Origin: an uncultured Methanosarcinales archaeon
GTDB lineage: Archaea; Nanobdellota; Nanobdellia; Woesearchaeales; GW2011-AR9
Direction: 5' to 3'
Assembly: GCA_964510085.1 (NCBI GenBank)
Contig: CAZEAB010000003.1
Coordinates: 18,276-82,275 of the forward strand
DNA: 64,000 nt
In this document: one piece after another, positions 2,915 through 61,262 of the stretch
Position numbering within the stretch: the stretch's first letter is position 1
Layout of the letters: every line of letters begins with the position of its first letter
Translations under genes and position numbers: made by a program
The notes under the pieces: generated by a model
Told to the model about the DNA's origin: nothing
The model's input: only the letters and a program-made list of their open reading frames with translations
Database searches by the model: none

Positions 2915-2916
2915 AT

Positions 2917-3004
2917 GCGTGTGTCAAGGGTAGCGCCCTGACTAGTCGAGACGGGTACCCCAAAGGGGTACGATATCCGTCGTGCCCTACCCAAAGACAC
3001 ACAC
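2917..3004. ncRNA. GC-rich structured RNA element, family copy 1 (unclassified)
   Basis: Starts 3 nt after the stop codon. Nested helices: GTGTGTC/GACACAC, GGGTAG/CTACCC, GACGG/CCGTC and a perfect 7-bp GTACCCC-AAA-GGGGTAC hairpin with a 3'-side bulge GATAT. Shares blocks GCCCTGACT, CGAG and GTGC with 8108-8205 and 43660-43778. Transcribed strand not established. Confidence 0.5.
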
Positions 3005-3050
3005 TAAGGAATAGAAACATTTTTATTCTTCTTTTTTTCTTCTTGACATT

Positions 3051-7270: not shown

Positions 7271-8107
7271 ATGGGTGCACGTAAATTTACACAAGAGGAA
7301 CAAGAACGGATTATAAAACCTATTGTAAGGAATCTCATTGAATCACATACAAAAGGAAAAACAACTATAATTGCTTTACAAGGTGGTCAAGGAACTGGAA
7401 AAACAACAATAGCTAATTTTATTAAAAGAGATTTGACGTATTTTAAATATAAAGTACAATCATTTTCAATAGATGATTTCTATACAACGGCAAAAGAAAG
7501 AAAAGCTCTCCAAAAGAAATACAAAAAGAATCCCTTCTATCAAATACCTAGGGGGATGCCGGGAACACATAGAGTAAAAGAATTACATACTGTTCTCAAA
7601 AATGTTAAAGAGGGAAAACCTTTTTCAATACCTCATTTTGACAAATCTAAACATAAGGGGTTTGGCGACGTTCTCAAAAAAGTAAATAATATCAAAAGAA
7701 GACAAGATTTTATTATCCTAGAAGGGTGGTGTGTTGGTATTCCTTCTGTTACATCAAAACAATTACAGAAAATTTGTACAAAAAACCGTATTAACTTGAA
7801 AAGTATTGATCCAAGAGAATATCATAAGACTGTAATTAAACATATTACCCCATATCTTCCGCTTTGGAAACTGATTGATACAACGATAATGATTGTCCCA
7901 GATTCATCTTCTTGCCATAAATTGTGGCGATTATTACAGGAGAAACGTTTGAAAGAAAAAAAGGGAGAAGGTATGACAAAGACACAAGTTTCACATTTTG
8001 TAGATGTCTTTTTACCATTTACGTATCTTTGCTATGAAAAGATAAAATCAGATATTATTATTAAGGTAGACAAATTACATAATTATTATCAGGTGAAGAA
8101 TGTGTAA
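7271..8107 (+). CDS. P-loop D-glycerate 3-kinase-like kinase (GLYK family)
   Basis: P-loop GGQGTGKTT, then SIDDFYTTA, PRGMPGTHRV, HFDKSKHKGFGD and ILEGWCVG. These match in order the plant/yeast/cyanobacterial GLYK pattern. Confidence 0.55.
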   Translation: MGARKFTQEEQERIIKPIVRNLIESHTKGKTTIIALQGGQGTGKTTIANFIKRDLTYFKYKVQSFSIDDFYTTAKERKALQKKYKKNPFYQIPRGMPGTHRVKELHTVLKNVKEGKPFSIPHFDKSKHKGFGDVLKKVNNIKRRQDFIILEGWCVGIPSVTSKQLQKICTKNRINLKSIDPREYHKTVIKHITPYLPLWKLIDTTIMIVPDSSSCHKLWRLLQEKRLKEKKGEGMTKTQVSHFVDVFLPFTYLCYEKIKSDIIIKVDKLHNYYQVKNV

Positions 8108-8205
8108 GTAACATCATTTTGGGAATGGGGGCCCAGGCTTGCCGAGGCGGTTATAATCGCAGATTATAGAAACCCGCCGTGCCCCATAATCCAAATGTAT
8201 GTTAC
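8108..8205. ncRNA. GC-rich structured RNA element, family copy 2 (unclassified)
   Basis: Begins at the nt after the stop codon. Long imperfect closing stem GTAACAT..ATGGGG / CCCCAT..ATGTTAC. Core GCCCAGGCT-TGC-CGAG-GGCGG-T-TATAATC-GCA-GATTATA-GAAAC-CCGCC-GTGC has the same architecture as copy 1. Confidence 0.5.
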
Positions 8206-8233: not shown

Positions 8234-9172
8234 ATGTTTAAATACGACGTATTATGTGTTGGAAGTGCAACAGTAGATCATTTCTTAACAACAGATGTAG
8301 CACTAAAAAGCATAAATCCTGGAGACAAAATTCTTGTGAAAGCTAAAGAAGTACATTCTGGTGGTGGAGCAACAAATACTGCAGCAACTTTATCTAAATT
8401 GGGTTTAAATGTAAAAATACTTTCTAAATTAGGCAATGACCACGATGCAGAGTTTATTAACAAGGAGATGAAAGAATATAAAGTTCAGAATATTTGTCTT
8501 CACACTAGTAAGAAACCAACAAATTCTTCTGTAATTGTATCCTCGCCTGTTGAAAAAGATAGGATTATTTACGCGCAAAAGGGGGCATCTCGAGACCTTA
8601 ATGCACGTGATTTCAAAAAACCACGATGTAAGTGGATTTACATGGCAAGTTTAGTTGGAAAATCATTTTCTGTGTTGAAAGAATTAACAAAATATAATAC
8701 TAAAATTGCATTTAATCCTTCACTATATTTAGCAAAGAAAGGAAAGCGACATTTAAAACCAATCTTAAAAAAAACAACGGTGTTAATATTAAATAAAGAA
8801 GAAGCACAAGTTCTTTTAGGGAAGAGAACAAATTCGTGGAAAATATTATTGGAAGGTCTACATTTTCTTGGTCCTAAAACAGTTGTTATTACAAACGGAC
8901 ACAGTACGTTTTACGCATTACATGAAGATACAACGTACAAAATAATCCCCCCAAATGTTCCTAGGATTTCAACAGCTGGTGCAGGTGATTGTTTTGCAGC
9001 CTCTGTAGTTGCAGGCATAATAAAAAAAATGCCCTTTGAAGAAGTATTAGCTATGGCTCAAGCAAATGCATCATCTCTTATACAGCAGATTGGAACAAAA
9101 GAAGGGTTATGTACGATGGCACAAGTACGGAAATTAATGAAGAAATATAAGACGAAAGTCACTTCCAATTAA
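8234..9172 (+). CDS. PfkB-family carbohydrate kinase (ribokinase-like)
   Basis: DVLCVGSATVDH N-terminus and C-terminal TAGAGDCFAASVVAG signature. ATG 8234 follows AGAGGT, whereas the track start 8195 lies inside the RNA element. Confidence 0.85.
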   Translation: MFKYDVLCVGSATVDHFLTTDVALKSINPGDKILVKAKEVHSGGGATNTAATLSKLGLNVKILSKLGNDHDAEFINKEMKEYKVQNICLHTSKKPTNSSVIVSSPVEKDRIIYAQKGASRDLNARDFKKPRCKWIYMASLVGKSFSVLKELTKYNTKIAFNPSLYLAKKGKRHLKPILKKTTVLILNKEEAQVLLGKRTNSWKILLEGLHFLGPKTVVITNGHSTFYALHEDTTYKIIPPNVPRISTAGAGDCFAASVVAGIIKKMPFEEVLAMAQANASSLIQQIGTKEGLCTMAQVRKLMKKYKTKVTSN

Positions 9173-15504: not shown

Positions 15505-16602
15505 ATGACTGACCAAGATAAAATTCTCGCATTTATTCAATCAACAGGGCCAACTCTCCCTGCAAAGGTAGCCAAACATATAGGTTCGGATATACTCATT
15601 GCATCAGCACATTTAGCAGACTTAACCTCACAACGTAAAGTAAGGATATCAAACCTTAAAGTAGGTGGTTCTCCATTATATTACTTAGACGGTCAGCAAG
15701 ATAAATTGTATGGCTTTGTTCAAGGAAATACAAATCCAAAAAACATAGTGGTACTTGACAGGTTACGTGACGAAAAAGTACTTCAAGAAAAGAACTTAGA
15801 TTTACTTGCAAAAGTTGCATTACGCGCATTAAAAGATTTTGCAGTTCCATTACAAGTTCGTACACAAAATGGGGTTGAACTATTTTGGAAATGGCATTTA
15901 CTTCCAAAAGAAGAAACAAATACGAGCATAGGGCTTATTCTAAAACCAAAAGAAGAACCAGCAAAAGAAGTAGAACTAAAGCCAGAAGAACAAGTTTCTG
16001 AAGAAATAATTGAAAAAGTAATTGAAGAGAAAATTAAAGAACCAAAGAAAAAAGAAGTTCCACCTCAAGAAGAGCCAGAAGAAATAACTCCAGAAGATGT
16101 TGCAGAAAAGAGTGATCCAAAAGAACCAGAAAAAGCAGAACCTGCAACCAAAGATGAACCAAAACCAGTTAAGAAAAAGCAAGCTAAACCAGTAAGGAAA
16201 AAGAAAAAAGTTCAAACGAAACTGATTAAGAAAGCAGAACCTGAACCAGAGATAATAGAAGAAAAGAAGCCACGAAGAAAGGTTAGTGAAGATTTCCTTC
16301 CAATAATTGAAGATTTCTTAAAAACTCTTAAAATATCTATTGAAGTAAAAGAAACTGTCCGAAAGAATGCAGAAATGGATTTTATATTAACAGTTCCTTC
16401 TGCTGTTGGAAAGATGAAATATTATTGTAAAGCAAAGAATAAGAAACGATGTGATGAGAAAGATATCTCAGCAGCATACATGGAAGCACAGATTAAGAAA
16501 TTACCATTATTATTTTTATATTCAAACGACATTTCAAAGAAAGCGCAGGAAATGCTTGAATCAGATGCGTTTGAAAATGCAATGGTAAAAAGGATAGAGT
16601 AA
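15505..16602 (+). CDS. Winged-helix protein with Lys/Glu/Pro-rich linker and conserved C-terminal domain, unknown function
   Basis: N-terminal wHTH-like 'ILAFIQSTGPTLPAKVAKHIG..RKVRISNLKVGGSPLYYL', a ~130-aa KEP-rich linker, and a C-terminal ~110-aa globular region. Confidence 0.6.
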   Translation: MTDQDKILAFIQSTGPTLPAKVAKHIGSDILIASAHLADLTSQRKVRISNLKVGGSPLYYLDGQQDKLYGFVQGNTNPKNIVVLDRLRDEKVLQEKNLDLLAKVALRALKDFAVPLQVRTQNGVELFWKWHLLPKEETNTSIGLILKPKEEPAKEVELKPEEQVSEEIIEKVIEEKIKEPKKKEVPPQEEPEEITPEDVAEKSDPKEPEKAEPATKDEPKPVKKKQAKPVRKKKKVQTKLIKKAEPEPEIIEEKKPRRKVSEDFLPIIEDFLKTLKISIEVKETVRKNAEMDFILTVPSAVGKMKYYCKAKNKKRCDEKDISAAYMEAQIKKLPLLFLYSNDISKKAQEMLESDAFENAMVKRIE

Positions 16603-23245: not shown

Positions 23246-23779
23246 ATGGATAACGCTATTGCATTACTTGAAAACGACTTAAAAAGTGCTGTTGCAATTC
23301 AATTAGTTCGTAACAGATTTTCTATTATAGCAGTACATTTTGGAGAACAGAAAGAAGAAATTGTTGATCTTGCACATAGATTGGGTGTTCGTTACATTTA
23401 TTTTATTCCATTTGAAGATTATGAAGACGTTTTACTTAATAAATTAGCAATGATGAAAATGGCAGAATTCGTTGCAGATAAAGAAAACGCAAAAGCCATT
23501 ATTACGGGAGAACATATCCCATTAATTGCAAGTAATCATCTTGAAGCAACAAAAATAATTAATACTCAATTAAACAAAACTGTTGTGCGGCCAGTATTTA
23601 GTTTAACAGAAGAGGAAGTGCTACGAATTGCCAATGAAAATGAACTTCCTCCCATGAAAATTTCTCCTTCATTAGATTTAGTAAATCAGAATACAGATAA
23701 TGCTATCTCAAAAATACGTAAAATAATCCCCCTTCTTCACGAAAACTTAAAAAACTCCCAGGTAATTGAAGTATCATGA
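23246..23779 (+). CDS. ThiI-like adenine-nucleotide alpha-hydrolase domain protein with degenerate PP-loop
   Basis: '[23 protein letters not shown]' aligns with ThiI 'LLSGGIDSPVA..ALHF', but SGGxDS is lost. '[16 protein letters not shown]' and '[13 protein letters not shown]' match the ThiI C-terminal half. No THUMP domain. ATGA overlap with cysS. Confidence 0.55.
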
Positions 23780-24489
23780 AAATATTTAATACATTATCTC
23801 AGAAAAAGGAGACATTTAAACCATTAGGAAAAACAGTAAATTATTACCAATGTGGTCCCACGGTTTATTTGTATGCACATATCGGAAATTTACGTAGTTA
23901 CATCTTTGGTGATATCCTTAAGAGAACACTCTTATTTAATGATTATAAAGTAAAACATGTAATGAACATAACTGATGTAGGCCATTTAACATCTGATGCA
24001 GATTCTGGTGAAGATAAGATGTTGAAAGGAGCGAAACGTGAAAAGAAAACAGTATGGGAAATCGCGGAATTTTATACAAATGCGTTCAAAGAAGATATCT
24101 CCAAATTAAATATTATCTCTCCTTCTATTTGGTGTAAAGCAACAGACCATATTAAAGAACAAATTGATATGATTACTCTATTAGAGAAGAAAGGATTTAC
24201 TTATACTTCGGGAGGTAATGTCTACTTTGATACTACCAAATTAAAAGATTATGGGAAGTTAGCTAGATTAGATTTGAAAGCTTCAATGAAATCTAGAGTA
24301 AAAAAAGATGTTAACAAGAAAAACCCACATGATTTTGTTCTGTGGTTTACAAAATCTAAATTTGACAAGCAGGAGATGAAATGGGATTGTGTTCTTGACA
24401 TGACTTTAACCGATGAAGAATATGAGAGTTTAAAGAAAGAAGCCAAACTTAACAAAAATCTAGACATCTTGGAGGTCGAAGATGTCTAA
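23776..24489 (+). CDS. cysS: Cysteinyl-tRNA synthetase, N-terminal fragment
   Basis: '[19 protein letters not shown]' (zinc Cys + HIGH), NITDVGH, '[14 protein letters not shown]'. It then diverges into a non-CysRS 33-aa tail ([33 protein letters not shown]) and a stop. Confidence 0.9.
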
Positions 24490-25310
24490 AGATTTTTGCA
24501 AAAGCGGTTGTGGCAACAAAGCTACTCATAAAGGATGGTGTAAGATAAAATGGAGGTCTGGTAATAAGTTCGGTGTTGCATGTCCGATTGTTGAGAAGAA
24601 AAGAGGAAGATCTATCTCAAGATTTAGATTAGAAGAAGCGAAATTAGGTAAGAACCCAATGCAAAATCCAGAAATCTGTCGGAAAAATCATTCTCCAGAA
24701 CGAAATAGGAAAGCTGCTGAAAGCTTAAAGAAACTAGGAAGTATGGGTTTGTTACCTCAGCAAACTGAAAGTGAGGAACTCAAGGAAAGAAGAAGAATCA
24801 GGAATCAAAAGGCACTTCAAAAACTGTGGAAGGAAGGGAAACATCCATTACAGTCTAAATCTAAAAAAGAATTTGAACGTATTAAAAGAAAGATATCAAA
24901 AACTTTATCTTTAGGGATAATTGAAGGTAAAATAAAACCATCTTATGGCGGAAAAAGAGTTTCTTATAAAAATTTAATATTGAGATCAACATGGGAGAAG
25001 GAAGTAGCTCAATTTTTAGATAAGAATAATATTAAATGGGAGTATGAGAATATGATTATACCCTATTACGACATAGAAAGAAATGTGGTGGCAAATACAA
25101 TCCCAGACTTTTATTTACCTGAATTTAATGTTGTGATTGAGGTAAAAGGAAGAGGGTATGATTCTCTTCAAACAAAAGATAAAATGGAAGCAATTTCCGC
25201 GCTTGGCTACAATACTTTTTTATTTGGTGAAACTCATATGAAACGTATTAGGCACGACGATCAGAGAATAATCAAAGCTATTAAAAATGAAAAAAATTAA
25301 AGTAAAATTA
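24388..25310 (+). mobile_element. Homing-endonuclease gene insertion splitting cysS (boundaries approximate)
   Basis: CysRS similarity stops after codon D (24387) and resumes at about 25311 (IGYPGWHLECS), in a different frame. The interval is filled by the endonuclease-like ORF and its GGAGGT SD. Confidence 0.7.
24482..25300 (+). CDS. Free-standing homing-endonuclease-like protein (Cys/His N-terminus, 2x NUMOD3-like, C-terminal PD-(D/E)XK nuclease)
   Basis: NUMOD3-like '[29 protein letters not shown]' and '[24 protein letters not shown]'. Nuclease-like '[21 protein letters not shown]...[17 protein letters not shown]'. Overlaps both cysS fragments. Confidence 0.7.
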
Positions 25311-26063
25311 ATCGGATATCCTGGCTGGCACTTAGAATGTTCTGCAATGGCTTCTAAATATCTAGGGAAGCAGTTTGACATTCATTGTGGTGGAATTGAC
25401 CACATATCTGTACACCATACAAACGAAATAGCACAATCAGAAGCAGCCCATGGAAAGAAATGGGTAAAATATTGGATGCATAACGAATTTCTTGTGTTGA
25501 GTAAGGGAGAAAAAATGGCCAAATCTGGAGATAACTTTTTGACGTTATCTGTATTAGAAGATAAAGGCTATTCTCCATTAGATTACCGATACTTCTGTTT
25601 AGGAACACATTACAGAAATCCGTTAATGTTCTCATTTAAAGCACTTGATTCAGCTAGAATTGCACGTAAGAAGTTATTTGATCGAGTTCTATCATTAAAA
25701 GGAAGTAAACATACTAAGGACCATAAAACCGGAAGAAAGTATGCAAAACAATTTACTGCAGAGATTAACGACGATTTAAACACTCCTAAGGCACTTGCAG
25801 TGATGTGGGACGTTTTGAAGAGTGATTTATCTGATCATGTAAAGTATTTATTATTATTAGAATTTGACAAAGTCCTTGGATTTAATTTAGGAAGTTTAAA
25901 GAAAGTAGAAGTTCCAGAATCTGTAACTAAATTAGCAGAGGAACGGTTAGTAGCTCGTAACGCTAAGGACTGGAAGAAGTCTGATAAGTTACGTTCAAAG
26001 ATAGAGAAGTTAGGATATAGTATAGCAGATACGAAGGATGGTTATGAGGTTAAAAAGGATTAA
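25287..26063 (+). CDS. cysS: Cysteinyl-tRNA synthetase, C-terminal fragment
   Basis: 'GYPGWHLECSAM', 'HHTNEIAQSE' (zinc His/Glu), KMSKS variant 'KMAKSGDN', and anticodon-binding-domain motifs. ATG 25287 lies inside the endonuclease ORF. Confidence 0.9.
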   Translation: MKKIKVKLIGYPGWHLECSAMASKYLGKQFDIHCGGIDHISVHHTNEIAQSEAAHGKKWVKYWMHNEFLVLSKGEKMAKSGDNFLTLSVLEDKGYSPLDYRYFCLGTHYRNPLMFSFKALDSARIARKKLFDRVLSLKGSKHTKDHKTGRKYAKQFTAEINDDLNTPKALAVMWDVLKSDLSDHVKYLLLLEFDKVLGFNLGSLKKVEVPESVTKLAEERLVARNAKDWKKSDKLRSKIEKLGYSIADTKDGYEVKKD

Positions 26064-42471: not shown

Positions 42472-43650
42472 ATGACTCTTTACACTTTAAAATATGCACC
42501 TAAGAACTCTAACCAGGTATTTGGACAAGATGAAGGAAAAGTAAAACTTAAAGACTTTATAACAAACTACACTCAACAAAAATTCAAAGCAGCGCTAGTT
42601 CATGGCCCCCTTGGAGTTGGTAAAACGTCTTCAGTATATGCAATAGCAAATGAACTCAAATATGACGTTCTTGAAATAAACTCTTCAGATCTACGAAACG
42701 CAGCAAACATTAAATCATTCCTTGATTCAGCATTAGGACAGCAATCCTTATTCTTCACACCAAAATTAATCTTAATAGATGAAGTAGATAACATCTCCGG
42801 TGTAAAAGATAGAGGGTGTGTTCCAGCTGTATTGAAAGCTATCGAAAAATCAAAATTCCCTATAATACTCACAGCAAATGACATCTATGACAAGAAACTT
42901 AAACCATTAAAGAAAGCAGCTTTACCTATAGAATATCCAAAATTAGATTATAAAATAATTGCTCACGGATTAGAATGGGTGGCGCAACAAGAGAACATTA
43001 CGTACGAAATTAAAGCAGTTAATTCCTTAGCAAGACAAGTTGATGGAGATATGCGTGCAGCTCTTCTCGATTTACATACGTGTGGCAACAACTTTACATT
43101 TGACAAAGTAACAACCTTATCAGATAGAAAGAGAACAGAAGCTATAACGTCCGCATTACGAATAATCTTCAAATCATCAACAGCAGAAAATGCCTTACGA
43201 GCGTTAGATGATGTTGATATAGACATGGACCAAATATTCATGTGGATGGATTACAATTTACCAAAGGAATATACAGATGCAAAATCCTTAGCAAAAGCAT
43301 ATGAAGTTCTTTCAAGAGCAGATGTTTTCCGAGGAAGGATTAGGCGAAGACAACATTGGCGATTTCTTGCATACATGTATAATCTCTTAACAGCAGGAAT
43401 TTCTACATCAAAAGAACAACGTAACACAGAATTTGTTCAGTATAAACCAACTATGAGGCTTCTTCGAATTTGGCAAGCTAATATGAAGAATGCCAAAAAG
43501 AAAGAAATCGCAAAAAAACTAGCAGCAAGAACTCACGTTTCTACACGAGTTGCAATGAAGCAGATACCCTATTTGCAGAAATATTGTGATAATTCTATTG
43601 CTGAAGAATTAGAATTAAGTGATGATGAGTTTAATTGGTTAAAGAAGTAG
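42472..43650 (+). CDS. rfcL: Replication factor C large subunit
   Basis: 'KYAPKN', Walker A 'GPLGVGKTS', 'LILIDEVDN', 'DMRAAL' sensor. Confidence 0.88.
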   Translation: MTLYTLKYAPKNSNQVFGQDEGKVKLKDFITNYTQQKFKAALVHGPLGVGKTSSVYAIANELKYDVLEINSSDLRNAANIKSFLDSALGQQSLFFTPKLILIDEVDNISGVKDRGCVPAVLKAIEKSKFPIILTANDIYDKKLKPLKKAALPIEYPKLDYKIIAHGLEWVAQQENITYEIKAVNSLARQVDGDMRAALLDLHTCGNNFTFDKVTTLSDRKRTEAITSALRIIFKSSTAENALRALDDVDIDMDQIFMWMDYNLPKEYTDAKSLAKAYEVLSRADVFRGRIRRRQHWRFLAYMYNLLTAGISTSKEQRNTEFVQYKPTMRLLRIWQANMKNAKKKEIAKKLAARTHVSTRVAMKQIPYLQKYCDNSIAEELELSDDEFNWLKK

Positions 43651-43659
43651 GTTTGTTTC

Positions 43660-43778
43660 TGTAAGCGCTGCCCTGACTCCTCTGAGCAAAGCTCAGGGCG
43701 CAAACGGGAAAGCTATCCCGTTAAGCGAGTCGAGGTGGGTACATGGAACATGTACAAGTCCACCGTGCAGCGCTTACA
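43660..43778. ncRNA. GC-rich structured RNA element, family copy 3 (expanded, unclassified)
   Basis: 12-bp closing stem TGTAAGCGCTGC/GCAGCGCTTACA. Contains GCCCTGACT, two extra hairpins (CTGAGC-AAA-GCTCAG; AACGGGA-N6-TCCCGTT), then CGAG-GGTGG-GTACATG-GAA-CATGTAC-AAGT-CCACC-GTGC. Confidence 0.5.
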
Positions 43779-43830
43779 ATGTATAAACCATACAAAAACC
43801 TTAATAAACAACTTTCCACTCCAACAACAA

Positions 43831-45291
43831 ATGACTATTACAATAGAAGATATGGCTACATTCTGTAAAAAGAAAGGTTTCGTATTCCAAAGTGCTGAAA
43901 TCTATGGAGGTCTTTCGGGATTCTTTGATTACGGACCGTTAGGAGTAGAATTAAAAAATCGAATTAAACAAAGTTGGTATAAATTTATAGTTCAAGATAG
44001 ACAAAATGTTGTAGGGCAAGACGGTTCAATTATTTCAAACCCAAAAGTGTGGAAAGCTTCTGGCCATTTAGACTCATTTGAAGATTTAATCTTAGTAACA
44101 AAAAAATCTAAAACAAAATTACGTGCAGACCATTTCATTGAAGAAAAATTAAACATTTCTGCAGAGGGGATGTCGGCAAAAGATATTAACACACTTATCG
44201 CAGAAAACAACTTAACATACAAAGGTGAAGAATTTGAAGAAGTTAAAGGATTTCACTTAATGTTCTCAACAGAAGTTGGAGCGGAAGGAGGTAACACTTC
44301 TTACTTAAGGCCGGAAACATGCCAAAGTATTTTTCCAAACTTCAGATTAATAATGGAATCTTCTCGACAGAAACTTCCTTTTGGAATTTCGCAGACCGGA
44401 AAGGCGTTCAGAAACGAAATCTCTCCTCGTGATTTCTTATTTAGACTTCGAGAATTTGAACAAATGGAACTTGAATTTTTTATTCATCCAAATAAAGAAT
44501 GTAATGCATTAACAAAGGAACACAAAAAAACCACGTTTCAGTTTTTATCCTCGGAAGAACAAGATAAAAGTAATAAAATCACATCAATTTCAATAGCAGA
44601 TTTACTGAAAGCAAAAAAGCTAACGGAATGGCATGCATATTGGCTTGCAGAGATGTATATTTGGTATACAAAGATTCTTAAATTTAGCAAAGAAAATATT
44701 CGAGTACGAGAACATACCAACAAAGAATTATCTCACTATTCCTCTGCAACATTTGACATTGATTACAAATTTCCATTTGGCTTTAAGGAAATACTTGGAA
44801 TTGCAAATCGTGGAACGTATGACTTAACACAACACCAAGAACACAGTAAATCCAAATTAGAAGTTTTTGACGAAGCATCTCAAGAGAAAGTAATGCCAAC
44901 AGTTATAGAACCATCCCAGGGAGTTGATCGTTTATTTCTTGCAATGTTATTTGAAGCATATAAAGACGATAAAGAAAGGGGGAATATTGTATTACACCTT
45001 CCAAACGAATTTGCACCAACGTATTGTAGCGTATTCCCATTAGTAAAAAATAAGGAAGAAGTACTTTCAAAAGCAAAAAAAGTCTATGAGATGTTACGAA
45101 CAGAATTTACAACCTCCTTTGACGTATCTGGAAGTATAGGAAGACGATATGCTCGTGCAGATGAATTAGGAACACCTTATTGTATAACAATAGACTTTGA
45201 AGAAGATGATTCTGTAACTGTTCGTCACAGAGATTCAACAAAACAAGAACGTGTAAAGGTTAAGGAGCTGGTGTCATATCTCAGAAAATAA
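43831..45291 (+). CDS. glyS: Glycyl-tRNA synthetase (archaeal/eukaryotic alpha2 type)
   Basis: 'GFVFQSAEIYGG', 'FRNEISPR', 'GVDRL', 'RRYARADELGTPYCITID'. ATG 43831 lies 22 nt after TATA ttaataaa; the track start 43735 lies inside the RNA element. Confidence 0.92.
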   Translation: MTITIEDMATFCKKKGFVFQSAEIYGGLSGFFDYGPLGVELKNRIKQSWYKFIVQDRQNVVGQDGSIISNPKVWKASGHLDSFEDLILVTKKSKTKLRADHFIEEKLNISAEGMSAKDINTLIAENNLTYKGEEFEEVKGFHLMFSTEVGAEGGNTSYLRPETCQSIFPNFRLIMESSRQKLPFGISQTGKAFRNEISPRDFLFRLREFEQMELEFFIHPNKECNALTKEHKKTTFQFLSSEEQDKSNKITSISIADLLKAKKLTEWHAYWLAEMYIWYTKILKFSKENIRVREHTNKELSHYSSATFDIDYKFPFGFKEILGIANRGTYDLTQHQEHSKSKLEVFDEASQEKVMPTVIEPSQGVDRLFLAMLFEAYKDDKERGNIVLHLPNEFAPTYCSVFPLVKNKEEVLSKAKKVYEMLRTEFTTSFDVSGSIGRRYARADELGTPYCITIDFEEDDSVTVRHRDSTKQERVKVKELVSYLRK

Positions 45292-61116: not shown

Positions 61117-61124
61117 TTTATATA
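61117..61124 (+). promoter_or_regulatory. TATA box for the 61150-61262 RNA gene
   Basis: TTTATATA about 25 nt upstream of the GGGG at which the GC-rich body starts. Confidence 0.5.
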
Positions 61125-61149
61125 CTTGTTACACTTTACTGCTATCATT

Positions 61150-61262
61150 GGGGAAAAAGAGGTATTGACTCCATGGGGGCTTAGGCCTCCACTCACACTC
61201 ATGCGGACTCCGTCAAGATTCTACCACCCTCACCCCCTCTTCGGAGATCCGCTTCTTTTTTT
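61150..61262 (+). ncRNA. Stand-alone GC-rich small RNA gene, unclassified (possibly pseudoknotted)
   Basis: TATA box, a GC-rich roughly 100-nt body in an AT-rich genome, and a terminal CTTCTTTTTTT. Helices: GGGG/CCCC, GAGG/CCTC, TTGAC/GTCAA, GGGGGC-TTAG-GCCTCC, and GCGGACTCC/GGAGATCCGC, which crosses the first ones. Confidence 0.6.

Follow-up and report, generated by a model that had tools for sequence, protein, structure and literature searches.

Three GC-rich islands directly after stop codons

The window, by which we mean the whole 64-kb stretch of DNA analysed here, carries genes for the RFC large subunit, ValRS, exosome and proteasome subunits and the RNase P protein. The closest homologues of its RFC are labelled Woesearchaeota or Nanoarchaeota by their sources, which makes the host a DPANN archaeon. 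Its GC content is 33.8%, and three GC-rich islands stand out from it. A descriptor scan and a covariance-model search run with filters off both return exactly three copies in the 64 kb, all on the + strand, and each copy begins 0-9 nt after a stop codon. This agrees with the preliminary description, which had reported all three starting right after the stop codon of a + strand gene. The 88-nt island at 2917-3004 from which that description set out has the sequence reported there and a GC content of 59%, and its predicted fold of -38.8 kcal/mol is more stable than that of shuffled controls (z = -4.1). The corresponding values for the two other loci, 8108-8205 and 43660-43778, are z = -3.3 and z = -7.0. 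The features of the three copies are as follows.

2908-2914, + strand: left target-site duplication of copy 1, GGAATAA, which includes the stop codon of the cupredoxin-like gene at 1769-2914
2915-3007, + strand: whole unit of copy 1, 93 bp, with arms at 2919-2933 and 2987-3002 around the core
2935-2985 (2928-2992 at its widest), + strand: GC-rich three-way-junction core of copy 1, a predicted fold
3008-3014, + strand: right target-site duplication of copy 1, GGAATAG, 6/7 identical to the left repeat
8108-8205, + strand: whole hairpin unit of copy 2, 98 bp, directly after the stop codon at 8105-8107
8108-8130 and 8183-8205, + strand: arms of copy 2, around a core at 8131-8182 (8124-8188 at its widest)
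43650-43789, + strand: whole unit of copy 3, 140 bp, with GG-tipped arms GGTTTGT.../...ATAAACC
43670-43768 (43663-43775 at its widest), + strand: core of copy 3
43680-43726, + strand: expansion of helix P2 in copy 3, with two additional hairpins within GACUC...GAGUC

Two aminoacyl-tRNA synthetase genes of the window are worth recording in their own right. The CysRS gene (23776-26063, + strand) is split into ORFs at 23776-24489 and 25287-26063, and between the halves, in another frame, lies a 272-aa ORF (24482-25300) with a weak match to Phage_endo_I (T7 endonuclease I-like). In relatives CysRS is one protein of 464 aa, and the split may represent the insertion of a mobile endonuclease into an essential gene. 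The glycyl-tRNA synthetase (43831-45291, + strand) is of the bacterial type. When compared with 185,579 species genomes it is, bar one close relative, most similar to proteins of bacteria (39-44% identity), the majority of them Firmicutes, which points to horizontal transfer into this archaeal lineage long ago.

A three-way junction at the tip of a long hairpin

We find that the islands form the tips of longer, imperfect hairpins (93-140 bp), in which AT-rich inverted-repeat arms carry a GC-rich three-way-junction cap. The blocks first described as common to the three loci, GCCC(T/A)G(A/G)CT, CGAG and GTGC, are present in all of them, together with the 5-bp helix, the 7-bp helix with its 3-nt loop and the 3' bulge. 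The stretch that had been taken for an unstructured spacer is in fact a covarying mini-hairpin, GA-CUAG-UC or GG-CUUG-CC, which we call P2, and the core is therefore a three-way junction. The units also extend further than first drawn, namely over 2915-3007, 8108-8205 and 43650-43789.

The core follows the order P1 (closed by G-C/C-G), J1/2 (CCU or CCA), P2, J2/3 (GA), P3, J3/1 (GU) and P1'. In copy 1, which has a covariance-model score of 81-84 bits, this reads GC, CCU, P2 (2940-2947), GA, M (2950-2954), T (2955-2971), the bulge (2972-2976), M' (2977-2981), GU and GC. P3 is made up of helix M (3-5 bp), a distal hairpin and a bulge of 4-7 nt that is invariably on the 3' side. P2 takes the form of a G-R...Y-C stem around a CUAG or CUUG tetraloop in the window copies (GACU/AGUC in copies 1 and 3 versus GGCU/UGCC in copy 2) and of an ordinary hairpin of 3 bp with a 3-nt loop in relatives (GAC-GCA-GUC, GGC-GUA-GCC); that of copy 3 encloses a 51-nt expansion. 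Beneath the core, a C.C or pyrimidine mismatch is found in five of the nine members that we describe below, followed by the inner arm, an internal loop and the outer arm. A full unit of ~120-130 bp would comprise GG..CTGT..CAAA/GAAA tips, AT-rich arms interrupted by an internal loop, an inner arm of conserved sequence (UGU...UAG-N-GC) and the GC-rich three-way junction. Unit size across the members ranges from 87 to 140 bp, and no unit contains an ORF.

The helices had been said to differ completely between the copies while pairing was preserved. Pairing is indeed kept, but helix M (GACGG, GGCGG and GGTGG) varies at only one or two pairs, and copies 1 and 3 have GUAC of helix T in common, so that the helices are not wholly different.

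Nine members and a covarying fold

A search beyond the window with a covariance model, which the preliminary description had proposed, shows that members exist in other Woesearchaeota contigs. Six additional ones (L158, L101, L124, L209a, L209b and L205) bring the family sample to nine members in total. A scan of JGI metagenomes with a pattern derived from the window copies returned 115 stretches, among which only L158, L101 and L124 are AT-rich DNA with the helices, the others being chance matches in GC-rich DNA. The more diverged L209a, L209b and L205 were recovered with a covariance model of six sequences from contigs of relatives reached via RFC homologues. A second covariance model gave no further members in ~330 kb of Woesearchaeota DNA, two pattern scans of viral contigs gave nothing real, and a GlyRS-based scan of genome contigs led to 79 bacterial loci and one relative, GlyRS being of the bacterial type. 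The family is sparse, with three copies in 64 kb here and about one per 80 kb in the relatives that were not selected by pattern.

Two other sequences came to light in the contigs scanned. At 8385-8486 (+ strand) of L158, a second GC-rich palindromic stretch opens with the inner-arm word TTGTATACT, reads TTGTATACTGCGTGCCGGCGCATAAAA...TTTTATGCGCGTGG and closes with a T-run; it has no covariance-model match and could be distantly related to the family or a small element of other origin. Furthermore, the sequence GCCCAGGCTACTKGCGAG..GGGCGCA.AC..GGGTAGC...ACCGGCGTGC recurs in the GC-rich contigs L089, L110, L111, L113, L130, L136, L165 and others. It gave no Rfam match at gathering score and is probably a conserved coding segment unrelated to the hairpin element.

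The fold proposed from the three window copies is real and conserved. Across the alignment of all nine members, pairing holds in 92.9% of pair cells and both sides change in 19 of the 23 pairs; pairing drops to 34-54% when partners are slid, and the observed score is reached by 0 of 500 shuffles. G.U pairs are nearly missing from the core (2 of 197 cells). The nucleotides of the core junction are invariant across members, and the tips of the units can be made out in no more than two to four of the nine. The asymmetric 3' bulge lies on the same side in 9/9 members, which argues against simple homogenisation of a palindrome, since this would erase the bulge. We infer that the folded single strand of the core is probably under selection, either as cotranscribed RNA or as single-stranded DNA.

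The arms pair in all nine members as well, with 207 matched positions, 55 mismatches and 20 gaps when the 5' arm is aligned with the reverse complement of the 3' arm. A count made on minimum-energy folds had hinted at a G.U strand bias in the arms, but this is gone in the arm-to-arm alignment, where the mismatches are strand-symmetric (12 of G.U type versus 11 of A.C type). Such symmetry fits inverted repeats of DNA better than an RNA helix.

Comparison with known RNA families

As first reported, the fold matches no known family among those compared. A comparison with Rfam, also proposed at the outset, gave nothing at gathering score in the window (Rfam 15), and at E <= 10 the three loci returned only unrelated families with best E-values of 0.3-1. 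ARAGORN found no tRNA. An H/ACA or C/D guide sRNA was rejected because the bulge (GAUAU, GAAAC or AAGU) and the junction strands are without the GA/GA (K-turn/K-loop) arrangement, the would-be pocket is conserved rather than variable, ACA falls inside a paired arm and RUGAUGA is absent. Folds were also compared by hand, on the basis of junction strand lengths, a bulge of 4-7 nt instead of 3, a helix of 5 bp instead of 4 and the missing GA/GA pairs. This excluded hammerhead, HDV-like, twister and hatchet ribozymes, the K-turn/k-junction, the bulge-helix-bulge splicing motif, the SRP S domain, 5S rRNA, armless tRNA and group II domain 5.

Empty sites, target duplications and IS6-like tips

Gene order around all three window copies is conserved in relatives, and the spacers there are without the element. 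The RFC-GlyRS spacer that holds copy 3 measures 180 nt here versus 25-62 nt in L205, L206, L212, L222 and L001. Copy 3 occurs in every contig of the same species and is missing from a relative with a 93%-identical RFC, in which the RFC and GlyRS gene calls overlap. Likewise, the PRK-like/PfkB spacer of copy 2 measures 126 nt here versus 34 nt in L236 and 14 nt in L238, and the spacer between the cupredoxin and 194-aa genes, which holds copy 1, 136 nt versus 57 nt (L236) and 36 nt (L238).

At the site of copy 1, the empty sequence in L238 is GTGGAATAG/GAAGCTTTTTATT (continuing GAAGC), and the filled sequence in the window is GTGGAATAA, the 93 bp of the unit, and GGAATAG/AAACATTTTTATT (continuing AAAC). 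L238 and L236 have a single GGAATAG/GAATAG followed directly by a conserved TTTTTATT promoter-like box. The empty sites of these two relatives thereby support a 7-bp duplication around copy 1, GGAATAA/GGAATAG (6/7), whose left repeat now supplies the stop codon of the upstream gene. Direct repeats of 7-10 bp abut the hairpin ends in five of the nine members. Besides copy 1 these are L209b (GTATTACC, 8/8), L101 (AGTAAAAA, 8/8), L209a (CTCCACACCA, 10 bp) and L158 (ATGAAAC, 7 bp), all four exact and symmetric. At random positions of the same loci, such repeats arise by chance at rates of 9% (at least 7 bp), 3% (at least 8 bp) and 0.3% (at least 10 bp). Copies 2 and 3, L205 and L124 have no convincing symmetric duplication.

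The best-preserved members, L209b and L101, end in GGCTCTGT..CAAA/GAAA tips, each with its 8-bp duplication. Read inward, the right tip of L209b, GGCTCTGTCCCAAA, is identical at 12 of 14 positions to the inverted repeat of IS6100, GGCTCTGTTGCAAA (sequence taken from PMC10470526), and that of L101, GGCTCTGTAGAAAC, at 11 of 14; random 14-mers from the element loci reach 11/14 at a frequency of 5.5e-5. The IS6-like tip is partial in copy 3 (GGTTTGTT) and L209a (GGCT) and absent from copies 1 and 2. Members of the IS6 family produce 8-bp repeats and have inverted repeats with a GG tip and cTGTt and caaa motifs (PMC7986276). Judged by their sequences, the 8-bp duplications and tips of L209b and L101 are the signature of this family. 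No transposase was found in the gene tables of the ~330 kb of related Woesearchaeota contigs or in the scanned ORFs of the window.

Two of the spacers in relatives contain short sequences of their own. In L236, the stretch at 15798-15856, orthologous to window 2915-3050 and an empty site of copy 1, reads GAATAG-TTATAAACTGGCTTCA-GAATAG, a 6-bp direct repeat around 16 nt exactly at the target used by copy 1, which may mark an old footprint or a repeated hit on a hot spot. In the RFC-GlyRS spacer of L222 (11168-11230, orthologous to window 43651-43830), ...ATTTTCAGACAAAGCC is similar to the IS6-like right tip (...ACAGAGCC) of L101 and L209b and may be a solo end at the spacer that holds copy 3 in the window.

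Relation to neighbouring genes

Spacers in the window genome and its relatives are mostly 30-100 nt long, and boxes of the TTAATAAAC and TTTTTATT types lie ~30 nt before downstream start codons, in filled and empty sites alike. Because these promoter-like boxes lie downstream of the element and the spacers are short, only a few bases after the stop codon would tolerate an insertion. The duplicated target holds the stop codon in copy 1, a TAA that is apparently the stop in L101 and the start codon of the next gene in L158. Where a neighbour is known, the element has the orientation of the downstream gene in seven of eight members, which gives a weak hint of a role at the transcript level.

It could be proposed that the islands are cis-acting mRNA elements (riboswitches, terminators or 3' UTR stabilisers against the exosome) selected separately for each gene. 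The window copies sit immediately after stop codons, their structure is very stable and exosome genes are present in the window. We nonetheless regard this explanation as very improbable. The flanking genes are nothing alike (cupredoxin-like, kinases, RFC/GlyRS, IMPDH, glutaredoxin), the promoter-like boxes between element and start codon leave it outside the downstream 5' UTR, three of the members in relatives lie between divergent genes, and the orthologous genes of relatives manage without the element. The first two of these points also led us to reject a riboswitch or other 5' UTR element.

It is also unlikely, in our assessment, that the islands are an independent family of small non-coding RNA genes, in which the conserved junction would serve as a scaffold for protein binding, with variable helices, the copies would have spread by duplication like archaeal C/D sRNA genes and the flanking repeats would be coincidental. 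Strong covariation, invariant junction nucleotides and a 3' bulge on one side in 9/9 members are consistent with such genes, as are the GC-rich composition within an AT-rich genome, the co-orientation of 7/8 members with the downstream gene and the TATA-like boxes seen by eye ~25 nt upstream of copies 2 and 3. However, copy 1 has no clear TATA box, and copies 2 and 3 have no oligo-T terminator; the one T-run seen by eye follows copy 1 and overlaps the promoter region of the next gene. In this respect the copies contrast with the separate island at 61149-61259, where a TATA-like box and a T-run are both present. Mismatches in the arms are free of G.U strand bias, L124 runs antisense to the genes on either side of it, no copy is kept at an orthologous site, and the duplications and IS6-like tips are statistically unlikely to have arisen by chance.

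The island at 61149-61259 (+ strand) is itself GC-rich and ~105 nt long and lies in the largest inter-ORF gap of the window (492 nt). Its TATA-like box, TTTATATA, is at 61118-61125, and a run of seven Ts follows the island. It has no Rfam match and its fold is no better than that of shuffles (z = -0.8), and it looks like an unannotated archaeal small-RNA gene.

A conserved core on varied arms

The window copies have three unrelated arm sequences, which always pair. The arms of L101 and L209a are ~90% identical, although the two stand at unrelated loci of different metagenomes, and an inner arm is common to L158 and L209b. Arm changes can be concerted, with GGCTAATAT in both arms of L209a versus GGCTYTSTA in L101. 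Modules also reassort: L101 and L209a combine the same arms with unrelated P3 hairpins, L158, L101 and L124 bear a near-identical P3 on differing arms, and L209a and L209b, from one genome, have the P3 base GGCAUAU in common. A search for core-less hairpins, which would be a sign that the core had inserted into a pre-existing palindrome, found none.

These features raise the question of whether the folded GC-rich junction, as single-stranded DNA or RNA, could itself be the target of the mobilising enzyme, with the arms free to change as long as they pair. The core is better conserved than the tips, the arms of the window copies differ wholly yet pair, both arms change in concert between L209a and L101, and the same arms occur with different P3 hairpins and the same P3 on different arms. 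On the other hand, the known systems of this kind (IS200/IS605, REP/RAYT and integron attC) make no target duplication, the R-box consensus of attC is absent, and the IS6-like tips of L101 and L209b point to ordinary tip recognition. Moreover, template switching within palindromes can change both arms together and could also account for the concerted changes. Recognition by structure therefore seems quite unlikely to us. As to integron attC sites in particular, these were rejected as an identity for the islands, which are without R''/R' boxes (RYYYAAC...GTTRRRY) and have an AAC/GTT pair only at the base of copy 2. No cassette arrays are present, housekeeping genes of both strands lie between the copies, and duplications are found.

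Discussion

The evidence assembled here indicates a MITE-like mobile element rather than an ordinary RNA gene or riboswitch. We consider it probable, on the basis of its sequence features, that the islands are copies of a non-autonomous hairpin MITE, probably mobilised by an IS6-type system, with an unusually constrained GC-rich three-way-junction core. We arrive at this reading because of the hairpin arms, the target duplications, the empty orthologous sites and the IS6-like tips. The preliminary description had favoured a selected RNA structure over MITE copies, and this part of it is contradicted by the inverted-repeat arms with their strand-symmetric mismatches, by the target-site duplications and empty orthologous sites, by the IS6-like tips on two members and the near-identical arms at unrelated loci, and by the lack of a consistent promoter or oligo-T terminator. 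The element inserts into intergenic spacers with duplication of a 7-10 bp target (8 bp in the best-preserved copies), its presence varies between close relatives, and it encodes nothing.

As for the mechanism, an IS6/IS26-type DDE transposase supplied in trans would bind the tips and make an 8-bp staggered cut, and the tips of the window copies would be partly decayed or atypical. If insertion is tolerated only in the short interval from a stop codon to the following promoter, copies would come to lie right after stops. Our guess is that the junction core might nucleate clean intramolecular folding of the long hairpin, or bind a factor.

Some observations go against an ordinary MITE. Copy 3, at least, was gained recently, yet the arms of the three window copies are unrelated, which a sequence-specific transposase should not accept. 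In addition, the core rather than the tips is the most conserved part, the reverse of what is usual. The MITE reading is further weakened by the failure to find a transposase in the ~330 kb of related contigs, by the four members with no convincing duplication and by tips that are clearly IS6-like in only two members, and the sample comprises nine members, three of them recovered with a pattern taken from the window copies. There is a small but appreciable chance that the core is a functional module of RNA or single-stranded DNA, for instance a motif that binds protein or acts catalytically, or the site that is actually recognised for mobilisation. If so, a functional core would ride on, or define, a mobile hairpin, and selection would keep this core while the arms and distal hairpin are swapped as modules. 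This would amount to an archaeal 'mobile structured RNA' and to a rare case in which transposition in archaea has spread a structured nucleic-acid motif.

Taken as a probable MITE, the family illustrates that mobile DNA can lie behind GC-rich islands of AT-rich DPANN genomes that covary and look 'RNA-like', and that screens for structured RNAs in such genomes need checks of filled and empty sites and of target duplications. A Woesearchaea genome ranks among the most MITE-dense archaeal genomes in a survey of prokaryotic MITEs (PMC11602168). The richness of Woesearchaeota in MITEs is so far known only from automated counts, and our results provide a concrete, searchable model of a MITE family for this group, linked to IS6-type ends.

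Comparison with known mobile hairpins and IS6-family MITEs

Among bacterial repeats, the Correia elements (CREE) of Neisseria, the enterobacterial ERIC sequences and the pneumococcal RUP and BOX elements are ~100-150 bp long, form long hairpins when transcribed, and lie in intergenic DNA near gene ends, where their presence varies between strains. The Woesearchaeota element resembles them in size, hairpin structure, intergenic location and variable presence, and its mosaicism is BOX-like. These repeats differ from it in being sequence-homogeneous within a genome, in their bacterial hosts and in having no conserved branched GC-rich cap with covarying helices. The GC clusters of yeast mitochondria are mobile GC-rich hairpin islands between the genes of a genome very rich in AT, and the likeness lies in this scattering of GC-rich, hairpin-forming mobile islands through AT-rich intergenic DNA. 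They are nevertheless without IS6-like tips or 8-bp duplications and belong to another host and to other sequence families.

Integron attC sites offer a further parallel, as imperfect hairpins just past stop codons whose structure is better conserved than their sequence and whose bulged bases are one-sided. Unlike them, the Woesearchaeota element has no R''/R' consensus, cassette array or nearby integrase, and it is flanked by duplications, whereas attC recombination yields none.

The IS6 family is abundant in archaea and includes two catalogued MITEs (PMC7986276). Several features set the Woesearchaeota units apart from IS6/IS26-family MITEs: a length of 93-140 bp versus 227 and 336 bp, long pairing arms beyond the 14-20 bp inverted repeat, an internal GC-rich junction better conserved than the tips, which are degenerate in most members, and no cognate transposase found in the ~330 kb of related contigs. 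At the same time, the units share with these MITEs the absence of an ORF, the 8-bp duplications of their best-preserved members and tips that match GG..CTGT..CAAA, with 11-12 of 14 positions identical to the IS6100 inverted repeat in two members.
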